NCBI GenBank assembly: GCA_029820565.1
Contig: JALGUR010000003.1
Location: 67,304 to 131,303, forward strand
From: Candidatus Zipacnadia bacterium
GTDB lineage: Bacteria; Armatimonadota; Zipacnadia; Zipacnadales; Zipacnadaceae
Length of the DNA: 64,000 bases
Direction: 5' to 3'
Part shown: one piece after another, positions 4,416 through 15,456 of the stretch
How positions within the stretch are numbered: position 1 is the stretch's first letter
How the letters are laid out: each line of letters starts with the position of its first letter
The notes under the pieces: model-generated
What the model was told of the DNA's origin: nothing
The model's input: only the letters and a program-made list of their open reading frames with translations
Database searches by the model: none
Translations under genes and position numbers: made by a program

Positions 4416-7400
4416 ATGCCAGCGCCGTTTGTCCATCTGCACGTCCACTCCGAATATAGTCTGTTAGACGGCGCTTGCCGTCTATCGCAGTTGGTAGAGC
4501 AGGTAGCCGGGTTGGATATGCCGGCGGTGGCCCTGACCGACCACGGGGTGATGTATGGGGCCATTGATTTCTACAAGCACTGCCGAGCCGCTGGGGTAAA
4601 GCCGATTATCGGCTGCGAGGTATATCTGGCCACGCGCACTCGTTTTGACCGCTCCACCGCTGAAGACCGGAATGCTTACCATCTGGTGCTGCTGGCTGAA
4701 AACCTCCAGGGGTATAAGAACCTGATGAAACTGGTCAGTGCCGCGCACCTGGAGGGCTTCTACTATCATCCCCGAGTGGACTTTGAACTCCTGGGCAACC
4801 ATAGCGAGGGTCTCATCGCCCTCAGCGGATGTCAGCAGGGCTTGATTGCCACTGATATACTCCAGGATAGATTGGCCGCGGCTCGCCAGCACTGTGAGTT
4901 GTTCAAGGAATTGTTCGGGCCGGACAATTTCTACCTGGAGTTGATGAACCACGGCCTGGCGGAGCAGCAGCGGGTAATTGCGGCCAAGTTGCGGCTGGCT
5001 GATGAACTTGACTTGCCCGTGGTGGCCACCAATGATGTCCACTACCTCAACCAGCAGGATGCTGAGGCCCACGATGTGCTGCTGTGCATCCAGACCCAGT
5101 CCACCTGCCAGCAGGCCAACCGATTGCGCTTCCCCGGCGACCAGTTCTATCTGAAGTCAGCGGGCCAGATGAACGAGGTGTTCGGCGAGATACCGGAGGC
5201 GCTGAGCAACACGCTGGAAATCGCTGACCGCTGCAATGTAGAGTTGGAGTTAGGCAATTTGATGCTACCCCATTTTGCCGTGCCCACGGGACACGACCTG
5301 AACAGTTATCTGCGGGAGTTGTGTGAGCAGAATATTGAGGTGCGCTATGGCTCACCGCGCCCCGAGGTAATTCAGCGACTGGATTATGAACTGGATGTCA
5401 TTGCCCAAACTAACTACGCAGGTTACTTTTTGATAGTGGCTGACTTCATACGAGAGGCCAAGGAGCGTGGTATCCTGGTCGGCCCAGGGCGTGGCTCAGC
5501 CACCGGTAGTATTGTGGCGTATCTGCTGGACATCAGCGAGATTGACCCGCTACGGTACGGGCTGATATTTGAGCGGATGCTCAACCCGGAGCGGGCCAGC
5601 CCGCCGGATATTGACTTGGACTTCCCCGATGACCGCCGGGAAGAGATCATTGAATATGTAAAGGAGAAGTATGGGCGGGAGCGGGTCGCACAGGTAGTTA
5701 CCTTCAATACGCTGGGGGCACGGGCGGCCATCCGTGATGTAGGCCGGGCTATGGAAGTTCCCTTGAAGAAAGTGGATACGCTGGCCAAGTTAGTGCCCTT
5801 TGGCCGGTCGCTTGACAATGCATTAAAGTTGGTTGCTGAGTTGGCTGAGGCGGTCCAGGAAGATGAGGAAACGGCCCGACTGCTGAGCACTGCCCAGAAT
5901 CTGGAGGGCCTGGCGCGACACGCCTCGGTGCACGCCGCCGCTGTGGTTATTGCTGATGCTCCGCTAACTGAGTATGTTCCCCTGCGCGGCGAGAAAGATG
6001 GCACGGTCACCACCCAGTACGCCATGGGGCCGATAGAGGACGTGGGACTGGTGAAGATGGATTTCTTGGGCCTTAAAACCCTTACCGTTATTCAGCGGAC
6101 TGTGGAGGCGGTGGCTGACAATCACGGGGTAGAAATTGACCTGCTCAACCTGCCCCGGGATGACCCCAAGACATACCAACTGCTGTGCGCAGGGGATACG
6201 GTGGCGGTATTTCAGTTGGAAAGTGAGGGGATGCGCAGCCTGCTGCGGCAGTTGCAACCGGAGCGGTTTGAGCACATAATCGCGGCCGTGGCCCTATATC
6301 GCCCCGGGCCGATGCAACATATTGACACCTACTGTGCCCGGCGTCACGGGGAGCCGGTGAAGTATCCGCACCCGGACCTGGAGCCAATTCTGGCCGAGAC
6401 CTATGGCATAATTACCTATCAAGAGCAAGTGATGGAGATTGCCTCGATCCTGGCCGAGTTCAGTATGCCTCAGGCGGAAGTGATTATGCGGGCTATGGGC
6501 AAGAAGGACCACGAGAAGATGGAGCAGATGAAGCCGCTATTTATGCAGGGGTGTGTTGATAACGACGTATCCCAAGGGACGGCCCGCGAAATCTACGCGC
6601 GGATGGAGAGTTTCGCCTCGTATGGCTTTAATAAATCTCACGCCGCGGCCTATGCCCTGGTGGCCTACTGGACGGCGTATCTGAAGGCCAACTATCCGGC
6701 GGAGTTTATGGCCGCCCATCTGTCCACGGTGATGGATAGCAGTGAGGATGTGGCTAAGGCGGTGACCGAATGTCGGCGGTTAGGGCTACAGGTGCGGCCG
6801 CCTTCGGTCAATCGCAGTCAAGCGCATTTCGCCGTAGAGGGCACTGAGATTCTATTTGGCTTGGCGGCTATCAAGAATTTGGGTACGCCTACCGCGGCGG
6901 CGATCGTGGGCGAGCGTGACAGTGACGGCCCCTACCTGGGCTTGGCTGATTTTTCTCGTCGGCTGCCCGCTGAGAAAGTATCTGTTGCTTCGGTCAAAGT
7001 GCTCATCCAGGTGGGAGCCTTTGACGAGTTTGGCCAGCGCAATAGTCTGCTGGCCGCGGCGGATAGTGTGTATGCGGCGGGCCAGAAATACCAGCAAGAC
7101 CAGGCCGTAGGGCAAAGTTCATTGTTCGGAGGCAGTCAGCCGGCCGCTGACCAGTGGCCCGAGCCGCCGCTGCCGGACGTGCCGGCTATGACCGAGGAGC
7201 AAGTACTGGGACTGGAGAAGGAACTGCTGGGCCTGTATCTGTCCAGCCACCCGCTGGTCAAGAACCAAGAGCGGGTAGAGCAGTGTACTACGGCGTCAAT
7301 TGAGGAGTTGACTGAATTCGCCGATGGCAGCCGAGTGGTGGTAGGCGGCGTCATCGCCGAAACCAAGCGCCACATTGACAAAAACGGCGACTTGATGATG

Positions 7401-8003
7401 TTCCTGACGCTGGAAGGGTTGGCCGAGCAGGTGGAAGTAACGGTGTTGGCCTCGGCCTACGAGACCTGCCAGGAGAATCTGGAAGAGGGTAACCTCGTGG
7501 TAATGGCGGCCCGCGTGGACCGGCAACTGTCCCGCTCGGGCAACGATGACGAGGTGAAACTCTTGGCTGACGACGTTGTACCGCTGGATGAAGCCCAACT
7601 GGTCTCGCCGCGGCAGAGAAAGCAAGCTGAGCAGGGTCGGCACGAGGAGGCGCGGGGATCCGCCGAACAAGCACCCCCACCTGCGGCCCCCCTCTCTATC
7701 CCCCCGCAAGCGGGGGGAGATAGGGGGGAAAGTCGGCGCACCGGCCCGGCGCCGGCCCCGCGCACGGTTATCATTGAATTGGACGGGCCCCAGACTGATG
7801 ACCACACGCTTGCTTCTCTGAAGGAGGTTATGCGTCGCTACCAGGGTCCACAGCCGGTAGTGCTGCGGTTTACCGGTAATGGCCAGCAGCGGCGGGTAGA
7901 CTTGGGCGAGAACTACACCGTCAACTGCAGCGAGGAATTCCCCATCCAGGTCCGCCGCCTGCCCGGAGTCCTTACGCTGTGGGAGGAAGAGACGGCGAAG
8001 TAA
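4416..8003 (+). CDS. dnaE: DNA polymerase III alpha subunit
   Basis: 1195 aa. PHP N-terminus (FVHLHVHSEYSLLDG), pol III alpha core motifs and an OB-fold region. AAGGAG SD upstream. Confidence 0.97.
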   Translation: MPAPFVHLHVHSEYSLLDGACRLSQLVEQVAGLDMPAVALTDHGVMYGAIDFYKHCRAAGVKPIIGCEVYLATRTRFDRSTAEDRNAYHLVLLAENLQGYKNLMKLVSAAHLEGFYYHPRVDFELLGNHSEGLIALSGCQQGLIATDILQDRLAAARQHCELFKELFGPDNFYLELMNHGLAEQQRVIAAKLRLADELDLPVVATNDVHYLNQQDAEAHDVLLCIQTQSTCQQANRLRFPGDQFYLKSAGQMNEVFGEIPEALSNTLEIADRCNVELELGNLMLPHFAVPTGHDLNSYLRELCEQNIEVRYGSPRPEVIQRLDYELDVIAQTNYAGYFLIVADFIREAKERGILVGPGRGSATGSIVAYLLDISEIDPLRYGLIFERMLNPERASPPDIDLDFPDDRREEIIEYVKEKYGRERVAQVVTFNTLGARAAIRDVGRAMEVPLKKVDTLAKLVPFGRSLDNALKLVAELAEAVQEDEETARLLSTAQNLEGLARHASVHAAAVVIADAPLTEYVPLRGEKDGTVTTQYAMGPIEDVGLVKMDFLGLKTLTVIQRTVEAVADNHGVEIDLLNLPRDDPKTYQLLCAGDTVAVFQLESEGMRSLLRQLQPERFEHIIAAVALYRPGPMQHIDTYCARRHGEPVKYPHPDLEPILAETYGIITYQEQVMEIASILAEFSMPQAEVIMRAMGKKDHEKMEQMKPLFMQGCVDNDVSQGTAREIYARMESFASYGFNKSHAAAYALVAYWTAYLKANYPAEFMAAHLSTVMDSSEDVAKAVTECRRLGLQVRPPSVNRSQAHFAVEGTEILFGLAAIKNLGTPTAAAIVGERDSDGPYLGLADFSRRLPAEKVSVASVKVLIQVGAFDEFGQRNSLLAAADSVYAAGQKYQQDQAVGQSSLFGGSQPAADQWPEPPLPDVPAMTEEQVLGLEKELLGLYLSSHPLVKNQERVEQCTTASIEELTEFADGSRVVVGGVIAETKRHIDKNGDLMMFLTLEGLAEQVEVTVLASAYETCQENLEEGNLVVMAARVDRQLSRSGNDDEVKLLADDVVPLDEAQLVSPRQRKQAEQGRHEEARGSAEQAPPPAAPLSIPPQAGGDRGESRRTGPAPAPRTVIIELDGPQTDDHTLASLKEVMRRYQGPQPVVLRFTGNGQQRRVDLGENYTVNCSEEFPIQVRRLPGVLTLWEEETAK
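7687..7728. repeat. Imperfect GC-rich palindrome inside the dnaE C-terminal linker
   Basis: CCCCCCTCTCTATCCCCCCG-caag-CGGGGGGAGATAGGGGGG. It encodes APLSIPPQAGGDRGES in frame. Confidence 0.55.
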
Positions 8004-8039
8004 TCAACAACCCAACGCTGAGAGAGGGAGCCGCTCACT

Positions 8040-8969
8040 ATGACGGAAGCCGACTTCGGCAGCAACCATATTAGCGTTGTAGAATCGCCGTGGGAAGCGA
8101 GATTCGTCTCGTTGGTGCGGTCCGTTGAAGAACAACTGATGATAGCTTCGCCATTTATCGCGCGCGGCGCCGTGGAGATTCTAACAAATGAATTGGGGAA
8201 GATGACTATCTCCAGGGATTTTCAACTAGTCCTTCTAGCCAATTTCAGCATCCCCAATTTAGCTAATGGCTCAGTTGACGCCGCCTCAATAGCTGACCTC
8301 ATGGCGTCAATACCGCATGTTCGTGTGCATCATCTACCGGGCCTGCATGCGAAAGCATACATAGCAGACCACCACACGGCGGTGGTCACGTCGGCGAATC
8401 TCACGATGGGTGGTTTGCGGAATAACGTCGAATACGGAGTCAAGATCAAACTTCAGCCTATCGTGCGCGCAATCAAGCAACACATGGAAAAATACGCAGA
8501 ACTGGGCGCCATATTGCCATTCGAGGAAGTGCGACGCTTCGGTTGTGCAGCCGCGGAACTCCGAGATTTGCGCAGGGAAGTAGAAGAATCTGGACGAAAG
8601 AGATTGCGGGAAGAACTGCAGCACCGGCTCGATGCAGCGAATCTACAGCTACTCCGGCGACGTGCTCACGAAGAGACTACGAATAGCATATTTGCGCCGA
8701 CCGTACTCTACATATTGCACGAAGGCCCTATGAAGACCGTGGATATAAATCGTAGAGTCCAGAGTATTCACCCTGATTTGTGTGACGATGCAATAGACAG
8801 AGTAATTGACGGCGTGCACTTTGGGAAAAAATGGAAGCACTACGTACGTAATGCCCAGCAGTATCTGAAACGCAACGGGCTTATTCGACGTGAAGGCAGG
8901 CATTGGATGTTGACGACTTTAGGCACACAAGAATTTGGTCTCATTATCTCTCGGGGAGAAAGTGTTTAA
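8040..8969 (+). CDS. PLD-family (single HKD) nuclease-like protein with C-terminal Mrr_N-like winged helix
   Basis: HKD motif HAKAYIADHHTAVVTSANLT (nt 8346-8405). Coiled-coil linker. The C-terminal segment (ILHEGPMKTVDINRRV...YLKRNGLIRREGRHWMLTTLG) resembles an Mrr N-terminal wHTH. GC is visibly lower than the flanks. Confidence 0.75.
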   Translation: MTEADFGSNHISVVESPWEARFVSLVRSVEEQLMIASPFIARGAVEILTNELGKMTISRDFQLVLLANFSIPNLANGSVDAASIADLMASIPHVRVHHLPGLHAKAYIADHHTAVVTSANLTMGGLRNNVEYGVKIKLQPIVRAIKQHMEKYAELGAILPFEEVRRFGCAAAELRDLRREVEESGRKRLREELQHRLDAANLQLLRRRAHEETTNSIFAPTVLYILHEGPMKTVDINRRVQSIHPDLCDDAIDRVIDGVHFGKKWKHYVRNAQQYLKRNGLIRREGRHWMLTTLGTQEFGLIISRGESV

Positions 8970-9025
8970 TTGGACATCGATTAGAAGATGCAAAAGGTCA
9001 GGTCAGACTGCTGGGAGGATCGCAA

Positions 9026-9409
9026 ATGGTCTACCTCAACTGCGCCAAAGATGCGCTGTGGTTAGTAGAGGTTACTGCAAACTACGACCTGTCAAATAGG
9101 GATAGAGATCTGATAGCAGAAATTGCGAGCGAAGAGGCCCGAAAGTCAAGAGGAGCCTACTCCTTTATTGTCCATGGCATTGTAGAAAGCAACACGAGTT
9201 CTACGCTCCTCGTGGAAGCCTGCCAGACGGCACTCAATAACCTACTATTGGTACTCTCCGATAATCTCGCCTATGATATCAGTTGGACTCGCTACGATAA
9301 AGAGAAATGGCAGGTGTTTCACGCCGCTGACGGAAGCCCGCGGCGGGCTAAGGTTTTGATAGATTTAGAGCAGATAGATGAAGAATTGCAGTATTATATC
9401 GAATTCTGA
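9026..9409 (+). CDS. Hypothetical 127-aa partner of the PLD-wHTH gene
   Basis: ORF 8903..9409. ATG 9026 lies 6 nt after GGGAGGA. No recognisable family. Same low-GC block. Confidence 0.5.
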   Translation: MVYLNCAKDALWLVEVTANYDLSNRDRDLIAEIASEEARKSRGAYSFIVHGIVESNTSSTLLVEACQTALNNLLLVLSDNLAYDISWTRYDKEKWQVFHAADGSPRRAKVLIDLEQIDEELQYYIEF

Positions 9410-9465
9410 GGGGGAACGCATAGGCCACAATAGTTATGTAGATTGCTATTAGTGGGGGAGGGCTT

Positions 9466-12288: not shown

Positions 12289-13896
12289 ATGCAGATAAGA
12301 AACTTGATTAAGTCAGTGGGTGAGGCCGAAGTCCGCCACATCCTGGAGGCACTCTGTGAGGGGCGGTATCGGTTCCACGCCGGCGTCAGTCTTTCGCAGA
12401 TATTTGATCCTGAGGAGCCTGGGTGGACGAAAGAGGAGAAGCGCATGATCTTCCTGAGCAATGTCGACTGGCTGGTTACGGATGACTCGCCTGAGGAGAA
12501 GCCGTTGTTGGCGATAGAGGTAGACGGCCCCCATCACAAGGAGGGTGAACAGCAGCGGAAAGACCGAACGAAAGATGCCATATTCGCTAAGGCGGGACTG
12601 CCTTTGTTACGACACACTACTGAGCAGGTGGGGACCAAAGTAACAGAGCGAGAGATCCGAAGATGGGTTCTAATGCACTTCTGGCTACCTCCGGTCCTTG
12701 AGGCAAGCGACGATCTTGCGGTAGACCTGAAGAACCTATCCCTAGCGTTGGCCGGTGCCCTATCTGACGAGGTCCTCGAGTTTCTCAGAGTCAGAGAAAG
12801 GTTCAATAGCCTCTTTTGGCCGGACGTCTTTGCCGATGAAATACGCAGCGACCAAGCCATGGACAGGGTGCGTGAACTTGCGTCTTTCGCCTCAAAATAC
12901 ACGTTCCCGGATATACCTACACCGGAAGAGACACTTCGGGCGGACCGCGTAGTGAAAGAGATTGCTCTGCAGTTCCCAGATGGCACGACGTTCCGTAGCG
13001 CGGCACAATGTTTGAACACTGAGAGCCTGTACCCTAATTGGGTTGCCTTCCAGCGCGGAGCTATTGATGTCATGAGCCACGCCATCGAAGCATACGAGGA
13101 CGGTTCCTTTCGCCCCGATCCAACGGCGGAGTTTCCTCCTGAGTCTGACGAAGCAACGGAATATGACATCTGGCGGGACTTTTCCGTAGACTGGCGCCGG
13201 TCGGTGGAAGACTTTACCTACCAAAGACTCCGCTCAATACGCCAAGACCTCGAAGGGCGACGCAACGAGGTGTGGCCCGTCTCGTCGAAGCGCGAGTTCT
13301 TTTACCCACCTGTTGCTGGACTCCAGTGCGCCCACCGATATTGTTTCCAAACAACGGATGCGCCAGAGCAACGAGTCGTTTACGGAGTTGCAGAGGTATT
13401 TCGGGACGATGTGCGACAGAAAGGCGCCGCTTCGCAGCTTCAGCTCGCCCGTGACGTTGCGAAATACGACGCGCTGGTTCAGATACTTGACCTGGTGAAT
13501 CCAGAGGTGGATGTACGCACGACTATCGCGCCGGATATCGCCGTACGCGAGAGCGACACTGAGACTGACCGGCAGCGGAAAGCGCGCCATATTTCCGGCT
13601 CGGACTACGACTTGGTGACGATCACCAGCGAAATCAAGCTTACCAACCCCAAGCAGGAACAGATTCGGCTCATCGCCACCCAGAAGGTGGAAGGTGAGGT
13701 GACTGAGGCCAGCGATGAGGCCAAGTTCAGCAAGTTGAGCGAGGAAAGCTTCGGCCTTAATCCCACCAGCCGGATCAAGTGGGATGTGAAGCTATCTGGT
13801 GGCGAGGAAAAGAGCTTGACCTATACCTACCAGGTTTATGTGAAAGACAACTCTGCTGGCAAACCACAAAGGCATGATAATAATCCCTGCGATTGA
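12289..13896 (+). CDS. 535-aa protein: DUF2726-like (PD-(D/E)xK-type) N-terminal domain plus large uncharacterised C-terminal region
   Basis: N-terminus has the pattern SVGEAEV...VSLSQIF...NVDWLVTD...[11 protein letters not shown]...[19 protein letters not shown]. This matches DUF2726 as I recall it. GAGGAGG SD upstream. The stop overlaps the hisA start by 23 nt. Confidence 0.7.
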
Positions 13897-14652: not shown

Positions 14653-15006
14653 ATGGGAGATAAAGCAATGGAAACGAGGGCAAGGATCAGTGACAAGCGG
14701 TGGCTCAGTCCCCCAGAGGCGGCGGAGTACCTGGGGATAGCAGTGAGCACCTTGTACCGGTGGCGCACGGAGGGGCGCATACGATTTTATCAATTCGGGG
14801 AACGCGTGAGCCGGATTAAGCGCGATGAACTGGATGGCCTGGCGCGACCTCAGCCCTCTGAGGGTACGGCGGCTCTGCAGGAATGGCAGCAGCAAGCCGA
14901 GACGCTTTTTCGCGAACTATATGAGCAATATGGTGTTGGCGACGATTCTGCCGAGGTCATCCGTGAAGCCCGTGAGCAGCGCTCTCGGCAACTGGGCGGG
15001 CGATAG
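14653..15006 (+). CDS. Excisionase/MerR-type HTH protein, putative antitoxin
   Basis: WLSPPEAAEYLGIAVSTLYRWRTEGRIRFYQFG is an HTH_17-like motif. An alternative start is ATG 14668 after GGGAGA. The gene ends 4 nt before the PIN gene. Confidence 0.75.
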   Translation: MGDKAMETRARISDKRWLSPPEAAEYLGIAVSTLYRWRTEGRIRFYQFGERVSRIKRDELDGLARPQPSEGTAALQEWQQQAETLFRELYEQYGVGDDSAEVIREAREQRSRQLGGR

Positions 15007-15009
15007 CGC

Positions 15010-15456
15010 ATGGCGGAGCGCATCTGTCTGGACGCCAGTGTGGCCGCCAAATGGGTCTTTCCGGAGGTCCACTCCGAAGAGGCGAGGGAAATCCAGACGG
15101 ATGTAGCCGATGGGCGCACCCAGATAGTAGTGCCGGACAGTTTCTTTATTGAATGCGTCAGTGTGGTCTATCATAAACATCAGCAGAGCCTGGCCGATAT
15201 GGAGCAGGCCCAGGCGGCCCTCGGTGTACTGCGGCAGGTCCCGGCCAACGTGACGGCGATCCGCGACGTCTCTCACCAGACCATGACCCTGGCCGAACGT
15301 CTAAACATCACTGTCTGGGACGCTGCCTATCTGGCTGTCGCTGAACATCACAACTGCGACTTGTGGACCGCCGATAAAAAACTTGCCCGGCAGACACAAC
15401 CGCACTTTGATTGGGTGAAGCTGCTGGGCACTGATGAATGGACTGAAGCGAGGTGA
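15010..15456 (+). CDS. vapC: PIN-domain ribonuclease toxin (VapC-like)
   Basis: Carries the typical acidic residues (ICLDASV..., [22 protein letters not shown]). 148 aa. Tightly coupled to the upstream HTH gene. Confidence 0.85.

Follow-up and report, generated by a model that had tools for sequence, protein, structure and literature searches.

Closest described systems

Fusions of an N-terminal phospholipase D (PLD) nuclease to a C-terminal winged helix (PLD-wH) were described by Helbrecht et al. 2024 (PMC11037411; preprint 10.1101/2023.06.07.544091), who listed 27 of them as candidate type IV restriction enzymes dependent on N6-methyladenine (m6A). One of them, CbaI, cut colony counts in Dam+ but not in Dam- Escherichia coli; the locus of another, Aba4572I, comprises an amino-methyltransferase gene (predicted target CGATCG), the PLD-wH gene and two hypothetical genes, and the authors worried about self-restriction; frameshifted methyltransferases were reported beside DpnI-like winged-helix nucleases in the same paper (PMC11037411). 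Here we analyse a locus of related architecture, a two-gene insert (genes A and B) between dnaE and hisD in a 64-kb stretch of a Candidatus Zipacnadia bacterium genome (Armatimonadota; contig JALGUR010000003.1, positions 67,304 to 131,303; hereafter the window, numbered from its first letter). From its sequence, its predicted structure and its analogues, we lean, by a little over an even chance, towards reading A as a modification-dependent (type IV) restriction endonuclease of the PLD-wH kind that was acquired horizontally and now stands alone.

Aba4572I and CbaI resemble A in carrying an N-terminal PLD nuclease and a C-terminal winged helix on one chain, and in belonging to uncultured bacteria (of Anaerolineae/Chloroflexi type). 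The neighbourhood reported for Aba4572I fits the order M'-A-B1-B2' found in relatives of the window such as locus L084, where M' and B2' are truncated copies of an amino-methyltransferase gene (M) and of the gene that follows it (B2), and B1 is a small gene after A. Since the architecture matches the published PLD-wH candidates and the neighbourhood of one of them matches too, A is no undescribed type, as a first-pass annotation made from the letters of the window had supposed. The two cases also differ: the window copy has no methyltransferase and a fused partner gene, and the DpnI-like methyl-pocket motif for which the published set was chosen was not found in A by sequence. The 2024 paper left the two hypothetical genes unanalysed and made no mention of truncation in the adjacent methyltransferase. 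If the Aba4572I locus were of the M'-A-B1-B2' kind, the worry about self-restriction would dissolve, because M' lacks the S-adenosylmethionine (AdoMet)-binding motifs. As far as the searchable literature shows, the B1 family, the chimeric gene B, the unannotated M-B2 pair and the recurrent position of PLD-wH genes inside truncated methyltransferase/restriction operons are new.

At the level of the whole system, the closest analogue is the DpnI cassette (dpnC and dpnD) of Streptococcus pneumoniae, which pairs a methyl-dependent winged-helix nuclease with a second gene that has no known function. DpnI differs from A in being a PD-(D/E)XK nuclease. Its cassette alternates with the DpnII restriction-modification (R-M) cassette at one site by recombination in the flanks (PMC3573125, PMC3812788); DpnI and DpnII swap cleanly, whereas the A-B1 loci contain truncated M and R genes.

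Mrr is likewise a stand-alone nuclease with a winged-helix DNA reader and a solitary, patchy distribution, and A shows weak similarity to its Mrr_N domain; in Mrr, however, the domain order is reversed and the nuclease is PD-(D/E)XK, not PLD. Single-HKD PLD nucleases such as Nuc and BfiI dimerise to build a single active site, which needs no metal and forms a covalent histidine intermediate. BfiI and NgoFVII share with A a single-HKD PLD domain that requires dimerisation and a separate C-terminal DNA-binding domain, but that domain is B3-like, in contrast to the winged helix of A, and both enzymes have an intact cognate methyltransferase. A was not classed as a conventional type II R-M nuclease, because the window has no intact cognate methyltransferase and only 2 of the 23 methyltransferases adjacent to A in relatives are complete. 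SauUSI is a type IV modification-dependent enzyme with a PLD nuclease domain; at 953 aa it is ATP-dependent and has a helicase and a different reader, whereas A has no NTPase. The DISARM protein DrmC was rejected as an identity for A (NF038319 62 bits against a cut-off of 133 bits; the PADLOC match covers the PLD core only), and none of the DISARM partner genes (drmA, drmB, drmMI/MII) was recognised beside the window A or among the recurrent neighbour families of related loci. Zorya ZacB and Mokosh MkoB were also set aside, with matches confined to the PLD core and far under the cut-offs, and with their partner genes absent.

Gene A encodes a predicted PLD nuclease with an essentially private, near-invariant putative reader domain

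Gene A and its parts are as follows.

8040..8969, + strand: gene A, open reading frame of 309 aa, predicted PLD–winged-helix nuclease, apparently intact
8070..8519, + strand: PLD catalytic domain, residues 11-160, from Foldseek matches to PLD nucleases and the layout of the AlphaFold2 (AF2) model
8346..8405, + strand: HKD motif, H103-x-K105-x4-D110-x6-T-S118-x-N120, read from the sequence
8520..8666, + strand: helical hairpin linker, residues 161-209, AF2 helices 161-184 and 187-209 with a predicted local distance difference test score (pLDDT) >90
8679..8954, + strand: C-terminal winged helix, residues 214-305, from AF2 secondary structure, invariant columns and a weak Mrr_N match

By motif and by predicted fold, A is a nuclease of the PLD superfamily, and the architecture proposed in the first-pass annotation, a single-HKD PLD nuclease fused to a winged helix, agrees with the AF2 layout, the HKD motif and the Pfam match. 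The complete HKD motif it had placed at nt 8346-8405 reads HAKAYIADHHTAVVTSANLT, in which H103, K105, D110, S118 and N120 are (near-)invariant in 120 homologues. Pfam PLDc_2 matches A with E 7.9e-10 (39.1 bits against a 27-bit cut-off) and all 120 family members (120/120), and the RE_NgoFVII PLD domain matches 52/120. The AF2 model, built from the alignment of the 120 homologues, has a pLDDT of 93.9 and a predicted template modelling score (pTM) of 0.89; Foldseek places it with Nuc (1byr, E 1.4e-6, TM-score 0.76 on the target) and NucT (6ehi, E 4e-7), followed by SauUSI (7clg) and Zucchini, further down by BfiI (2c1l), and also TrmBL2. The best sequence-level match in the PDB is SauUSI 7clg. 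The charged, coiled-coil-like stretch noticed earlier after the motif corresponds to the helical hairpin of residues 161-209 in the model.

The C-terminal ~90 aa had been likened to the winged helix of Mrr-type enzymes; the winged-helix fold is borne out by the AF2 model, but the Mrr_N match stays below threshold (E 1.6e-3, 19.0 bits against a 29.5-bit cut-off) and reaches E <0.01 in only 5/120 family members. With this score and no Mrr_cat PD-(D/E)XK domain in A by Pfam, the nuclease being PLD, membership of the Mrr family was rejected. The winged helix, and not the catalytic core, is the most conserved part of A (signature HPDLCDD...FGKKWKH..R..Q, 17 invariant positions). A phmmer search with it against 1.84 billion representative proteins gave 270 matches (~270 clusters at 50% identity), nearly all of them proteins of ~280-300 aa with the domain at the C-terminus, or fragments of such proteins; almost no other architecture in that collection carries it, so the reader domain is essentially private to the PLD-wH architecture. 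A reader that is near-invariant across phyla fits a fixed chemical mark better than varied sequences.

Relatives of A are spread over more than ten bacterial phyla and archaea at ~40% identity, with zero matches in the plasmid, phage and viral-contig collections searched, and A is under purifying selection in them (ratio of nonsynonymous to synonymous substitution rates, dN/dS, 0.09-0.18). The window copy retains all residues invariant across the 120 homologues (24/24) and departs from 4 of the 67 columns that are >=90% conserved (T67A, L69F, L225I, H237N). To judge from its sequence, this gene looks functional and its nuclease is probably still active.

Gene B is a chimera of two genes that follow A in relatives

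The second gene of the insert has these parts.

9013..9019, + strand: Shine-Dalgarno-like GGGAGGA, 6 nt ahead of the gene B start ATG 9026
9026..9409, + strand: gene B, chimeric open reading frame of 127 aa, B1 fused to a B2 tail
9026..9301, + strand: B1-homologous part, residues 1-92, B1 hidden Markov model (HMM) E 1.5e-38, ferredoxin-like model
9311..9406, + strand: B2 3'-end remnant, residues 96-127 (= B2 residues 186-217), found by tblastn, in frame with B1

The start of gene B and its 127 aa stand as first annotated, and so does the absence of a recognised motif, with no family match in Pfam, NCBIfam or PADLOC. What did not stand is the idea of a dedicated 127-aa partner. The first protein search with B returned only proteins of 102-222 aa, matched at its last ~30 residues, and the gene following P0006, the closest contextual A homologue, is unrelated to B; a conserved 127-aa protein was therefore rejected. 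A tblastn search against 80 A-carrying genome loci (the loci examined were 80 of the 113 from genomes and 80 of the 410 from metagenomes, with gene calls taken as longest open reading frames) resolved the two parts: residues 1-~95 match a ~92-aa gene, B1, which overlaps the stop of A, and residues 98-127 match the C-terminus of the gene after B1, that is, B2. Full-length B2, used in turn as tblastn query on the window, matches with its residues 186-217 (72% identity, E 6e-9). Because the two parts match two adjacent genes of related loci, gene B is, by sequence, an in-frame deletion fusion of B1 with the last 32 codons of B2, the rest of B2 having been deleted and five linker residues joining the two. 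An in-frame outcome has a one-in-three chance, and the B2 tail thus need not be selected. In a profile search of 5.8 billion proteins, B1 had 37 members, of which the other 36 are 80-104 aa long and the window B is the sole longer one.

In the AF2 model of B, residues 10-90 of the B1 part have pLDDT >90 and the last 19 residues of the tail <50. The predicted B1 fold is beta-alpha-beta-beta-alpha-beta, ferredoxin-like, and in the PDB it has generic ferredoxin-like neighbours only, none at E <=1e-3. The window B1 departs from 3/17 conserved columns. Two other identities of B1 were considered and dropped. B1 bears no resemblance by eye to the missing C-terminal (AdoMet-binding) half of a truncated methyltransferase and its topology is not Rossmann-like; and an IS200/IS605 TnpA-like HUH protein, suggested by the top fold matches, was dropped because these have E >1e-3 and a root-mean-square deviation of ~10 Å and B1 has no HUH or Tyr motif.

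M and B2 form a two-gene R-M-like unit

Full-length B2 is a highly conserved protein of 217 aa with invariant E43, D74 and D82-x-K84, and no Pfam or NCBIfam family and no PDB sequence match were found for it; the invariant residues appear to correspond to a PD-(D/E)XK motif. It lies directly 3' of an intact beta-class amino-methyltransferase, M (272-275 aa, N6_N4_Mtase, DPPF motif), with an overlap or a gap of a few nt. B2 turned up in 410 stretches of a metagenome scan; among the best 80 of these, nearly all have full-length B2 after an amino-methyltransferase, M is full-length in 64 and most of those without a full-length M are cut by contig ends (B2 pair loci L091-L093 and L096-L175). M and B2 are therefore a common two-gene R-M-like unit, and B2 is probably, from its sequence, the restriction enzyme of M and of an uncatalogued type II family. 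Neither A nor B1 occurs in the best 80 of the 410 stretches. At L163:456-3138 an intact M and an intact full-length B2 are split by a 383-aa gene, so a gene can sit between the two without truncating either.

Some relatives of A lie in truncated R-M-like operons

At every locus with A-B1, full-length M and B2 used as tblastn queries revealed truncation: A-B1 is flanked by a 3'-truncated M upstream and a 5'-truncated B2 downstream (e.g. L084). M' retains at most residues 1-213 of 275, ending …EEGDVV and a stop where intact genes read …EEGDVILDPFLGSGQ…, and otherwise 1-120, 1-49, 27-138 or nothing; it is always without AdoMet-binding motifs I-III. B2' starts at residue 36-42 at best, and otherwise at 84, 104, 121 or 165, while the window keeps 186-217. 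By sequence, the window would thus be the most eroded member of a decay series, with M gone, B2 reduced to a tail and A and B1 still intact. The M'/B2' breakpoints cluster within ~10 codons across lineages and are not identical.

A second type of methyltransferase (SPPF motif) is affected in other clades of A. Its N-terminal fragments lie upstream of A, with a small Cys-rich protein between fragment and A or after A, and with an MTaX1-HNH nuclease downstream that is truncated in most cases; at L043, L056, L061 and L177, A is followed directly by C-terminal fragments. At L066 and L081 the methyltransferase stops at about residue 245 and A comes next in the same frame; L066 had passed for a locus with a complete methyltransferase, but the tblastn match ran through the stop into A and the gene is truncated at ~q245. 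Roughly a quarter to a third of the loci have a methyltransferase gene, or a fragment of one, next to A. An adjacent amino-methyltransferase was detectable at 23 genome loci; it is truncated in 21/23 and complete in 2/23 (L028, L031). The truncation points are clade-specific, and at least five clades have A in or beside broken genes.

These adjacent genes bear on the view that A is what remains of a conventional R-M system, a restriction enzyme in the style of BfiI or NgoFVII that has lost its methyltransferase and is now inactive or silenced. The matches of the RE_NgoFVII domain in the family, the methyltransferase genes and fragments next to A and the visible decay of gene B would suit it. 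Yet A is full-length with all invariant residues, and purifying selection acts on it in relatives; the broken gene is the methyltransferase and not A, the reverse of classical R-M tolerance; intact M has a partner of its own in B2; and a near-invariant reader is unsuited to diverse sequence specificities. Decay that strikes the methyltransferase instead of A, and the partner that M has in B2, contradict this account, which we hold to be improbable.

Further restriction-type genes adjoin A. An R-M-like set of SPPF methyltransferase, 354-382-aa protein and ~228-aa protein is present at L028:420-4131, L031:7628-10696 and L043:6937-9564, with A inserted at three different places in it; L028 is the only locus at which everything beside A, the methyltransferase included, looks complete. 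In 19 loci a gene downstream of A encodes a nuclease with MTaX1 and HNH_2 domains, 268 aa long in its complete form and truncated in the majority of them (L006-L008, L014-L018, L022-L024, L026, L032, L048, L052, L055, L066, L070, L081); it is probably the restriction enzyme of the upstream SPPF-type methyltransferase. Genes for Mrr_cat-type nucleases stand directly upstream of A at L010:1722-3215, L020:6562-7992, L176:571-945 and L177:3-230, a group that includes the closest relatives of the window A, and at L177 A is followed by a methyltransferase lacking its first ~90 residues and having an internal stop.

Flanks of A-B1 are closest to different intact operons

Between truncated M'/B2' copies (L047, L049, L058, L067, L084 and others) dN/dS is 0.02-0.13, with dS near or beyond saturation, as it often is in this data set; the ratios resemble those of A (0.09-0.18). 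Ancient neutral pseudogenes were rejected on these values, which a recent or repeated arrival of the cassette would explain. M' of L047 shares 92% identity with the intact M of L145 and 86% with M' of L049; for L049, the nearest sequences to both flanks are those of the intact loci L143 and L124 (89% for M, 94% for B2); and B2' of L094 shares 98% identity with its intact counterpart in L135. Neighbour-joining trees and nearest-neighbour identities agree that the flanks of each composite locus are closest to a different intact operon. It appears that A-B1 came into M-B2 operons on more than one occasion, or is passed from one to another by recombination through their homologous flanks, and that each flank spent most of its history as a working gene; the truncated fragments may also have some function.

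A homing-like selfish cassette would account for several of these observations. A would then be a mobility nuclease that cuts in or near R-M loci and is copied in by repair, with defence secondary or absent. The clustering of breakpoints within ~10 codons in different lineages, the truncated flanks each closest to a different intact M-B2 locus, the low dN/dS of these flanks and the presence, in five clades or more, of A-type genes within or next to broken methyltransferases are all in its favour. Ordinary homologous recombination through the flanks, however, gives the same pattern without A; the insertion destroys its target genes, unlike intron or intein homing; and many copies, that of the window included, sit at unrelated housekeeping junctions. 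We know of no homing role for PLD nucleases, and we regard such a cassette as unlikely.

Possibly, though we put it forward tentatively, PLD-wH cassettes with small partners are 'R-M operon invaders' that land in, or recombine into, amino-methyltransferase/restriction operons. Landing would knock out the methyltransferase whose mark the nuclease would attack, the cassettes would spread to intact operons by way of their truncated flanks and end up stand-alone as in the window, and B1 would be needed to tame or time the nuclease during the take-over. If true, type IV-versus-type II warfare would here be settled by insertional replacement. With A and its partner intact between a methyltransferase and a restriction gene broken at clustered points, these loci offer a tractable case of one defence system replacing another. 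The window itself is a late, degraded stage, of interest chiefly because it pointed the way to the R-M invasion pattern.

A as a proposed stand-alone modification-dependent nuclease

A modification-dependent (type IV-like) nuclease, which the first-pass annotation had proposed, is the best-supported reading of A. Methyl-specific nucleases and methyltransferases are mutually incompatible, an established conflict (PMC2993543). In line with methyl-dependence, 21 of the 23 adjacent methyltransferases are truncated, 35 of 82 A loci are solitary, the window has no amino-methyltransferase homologue, and among the published PLD-wH enzymes CbaI shows toxicity that depends on Dam.

By analogy with known single-HKD enzymes, two copies of A would dimerise through their PLD domains into one metal-independent active site. 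Two conserved winged helices, carried on the helical hairpins, would read the DNA feature that licenses cutting, most likely a methylated base made by amino-methyltransferases (m6A or N4-methylcytosine, m4C). A would then work like Mrr or DpnI, but with a PLD nuclease instead, and would persist only in hosts whose own marking methyltransferase has died or is missing. Modulation of A would fall to B1, or in other clades to the Cys-rich protein; our guess is a regulator or an assembly partner. If A is methyl-dependent, it would stand for a widespread type IV class of uncultured bacteria and archaea that uses a metal-independent PLD nuclease.

Several observations weigh against methyl-dependence or against an intact A-B pair. 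The Mrr_N match is sub-threshold, Pfam shows no DpnI-type domain in A at E <=1, and in a profile search the winged helix has no sequence match to any solved structure, DpnI included. The likeness of A to Aba4572I and CbaI is one of architecture and neighbourhood description only. Aba4572I was toxic in Dam+ and Dam- cells alike, and neither it nor CbaI could be over-expressed or purified (PMC11037411); a possible cause of such failures is that PLD-wH genes were cloned without their coupled partner, from loci with a probably truncated methyltransferase. L028 keeps an apparently complete methyltransferase beside A, and the low dN/dS of the truncated flanks is unlike that of old pseudogenes. In the window, B1 has an unusually low pI of 4.6 where the family median is 9.2, carries the Y58S change and starts 57 nt after A, in place of the overlap found in relatives, and gene B may for these reasons be losing function.

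Small partners of A in relatives

B1 lies directly 3' of A in most of the contexts examined, its start overlapping the stop of A where both open reading frames read out, and it adjoins A at 11 of 82 genome loci. On a single short contig (L095:197-1308) it follows a 263-aa EcoRII-C-like (PD-(D/E)XK) nuclease and not a PLD-wH protein, a hint that nucleases other than A may also be served by B1.

At least 22 loci encode a small Cys-rich protein (~71-80 aa, C..C...ERCDxC motif) whose gene overlaps A at its start or its stop and for which no Pfam family was found; it is encoded upstream of A at L005, L007-L009, L013, L015-L017, L021-L024, L030 and L036, and downstream at L018, L022, L026, L032, L033, L048, L052, L064 and L070. 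From its sequence and place it is a second, unrelated small partner in the position of B1 in other clades, and the partners are clade-specific on the neighbour-joining tree of A. At 35 of the 82 loci A has neither B1 nor the Cys-rich protein nor any other recognisable partner and stands amid ordinary or housekeeping genes (for example those for fumarase, HolB, carbamoyl-phosphate synthase and S-adenosylhomocysteine hydrolase). The first-pass annotation had made its proposal depend on a conserved partner and on the gene context of A homologues. What we find is a partner coupled to A in the B1 clade but following it in 11/82 loci only, and a housekeeping context in a part of the loci, 35/82, so that both points speak in part against the proposal.

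Coupled small genes of this sort would be expected of a toxin-immunity or abortive-infection pair, in which A is a non-specific nuclease toxin restrained by the small protein until infection or loss of the cassette. Beside the overlap of B1 with the A stop and the second, unrelated protein in the same position, the intactness of A and B1 while both flanking genes decay is in accord with such a pair, and published PLD-wH genes were toxic or could not be expressed alone in E. coli, Aba4572I even without Dam. But the loci without a recognisable small partner imply that A alone is tolerated, the B1 family is basic with a generic ferredoxin-like fold and no antitoxin match, PADLOC gives no defence-system match past the PLD domain, and the broken methyltransferases are left unexplained. 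We therefore take this pair to be an unlikely explanation. A type II toxin-antitoxin assignment of A-B was rejected, as the partner is missing in 35/82 loci and B1 has no known antitoxin fold.

Position, base composition and neighbouring genes of the insert

The insert lies between dnaE (ends 8003) and hisD (starts 9466), with all genes on the + strand, and its borders are as follows.

8004..8039, no strand: left junction, 36-nt spacer from the dnaE stop to the A start, with no methyltransferase remnant and no repeat
9410..9465, no strand: right junction, 56-nt spacer ahead of hisD, with no terminator and no flanking direct repeat

Around the insert, direct repeats, terminators and promoters were not found beyond shuffled expectation, and the insert would ride on the co-directional dnaE-his transcription. 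With two reference methyltransferases and a methyltransferase HMM as queries, no DNA amino-methyltransferase homologue was found in the 64-kb window, in agreement with the earlier remark that none is nearby. The low GC content noticed at first sight persists on per-gene, third-codon-position (GC3) and windowed calculation: overall GC is 0.503 in A and 0.471 in B against 0.588 in dnaE and 0.608 in hisD; GC3 is 0.53 in both A and B against 0.67-0.74 in the six flanking genes, with dnaE, hisD, hisB, hisH and hisA among them; and windowed GC dips to 0.47-0.52 over 8001-9400, with 0.57-0.66 on both sides. The drop in GC3, together with the scattering of relatives over phyla, indicates that the A-B block was acquired horizontally, as had been proposed.

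This setting also bears on a housekeeping or accessory nuclease (DNA uptake, repair, chromatin) without a role in conflict, whose place at dnaE/his would reflect its function. A is co-directional with dnaE and the his operon and has no promoter or terminator of its own, and TrmBL2, a chromatin protein that contains a PLD-like domain, is among its structural matches. The foreign base composition and the patchy distribution, with different neighbours in every genome, contradict such a role; the conserved catalytic residues and two more selfish-type inserts in the operon also stand against it, and we rate it as very improbable.

Co-directional selfish-type inserts occupy three dnaE-his junctions, A-B being one of them. 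Between hisH and hisA (window 12289-13896, + strand) lies a gene whose 535-aa product has a DUF2726 domain (Vsr/PD-(D/E)XK-like; E 1.9e-13) at the N-terminus; its GC of 0.55 and GC3 of 0.63 are slightly under those of its neighbours, and it forms a second nuclease-type insert in the same operon. Between hisA and hisF (window 14653-15456, + strand) lies a toxin-antitoxin-like pair of an HTH_17 protein (117 aa) and a PIN-domain protein (148 aa).

At the 3' end of dnaE (window 7400-8003) the last ~200 codons are unusually GC-rich (0.655-0.66) and include a low-complexity Pro/Ala/Gly/Arg-rich stretch, followed by a conserved-looking C-terminal segment. Many short palindromes are strongly depleted across the 64-kb window (observed/expected ratio 0.12 for CTAG and ~0.4-0.46 for AGCT, TCGA, GATC and CATG) and several hexamer palindromes are missing from it. 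A search for past restriction in the scarcity of GATC or CGATCG was accordingly uninformative, many palindromes being depleted and CGATCG being no outlier. DUF1559 and N_methyl proteins are encoded elsewhere in the window.

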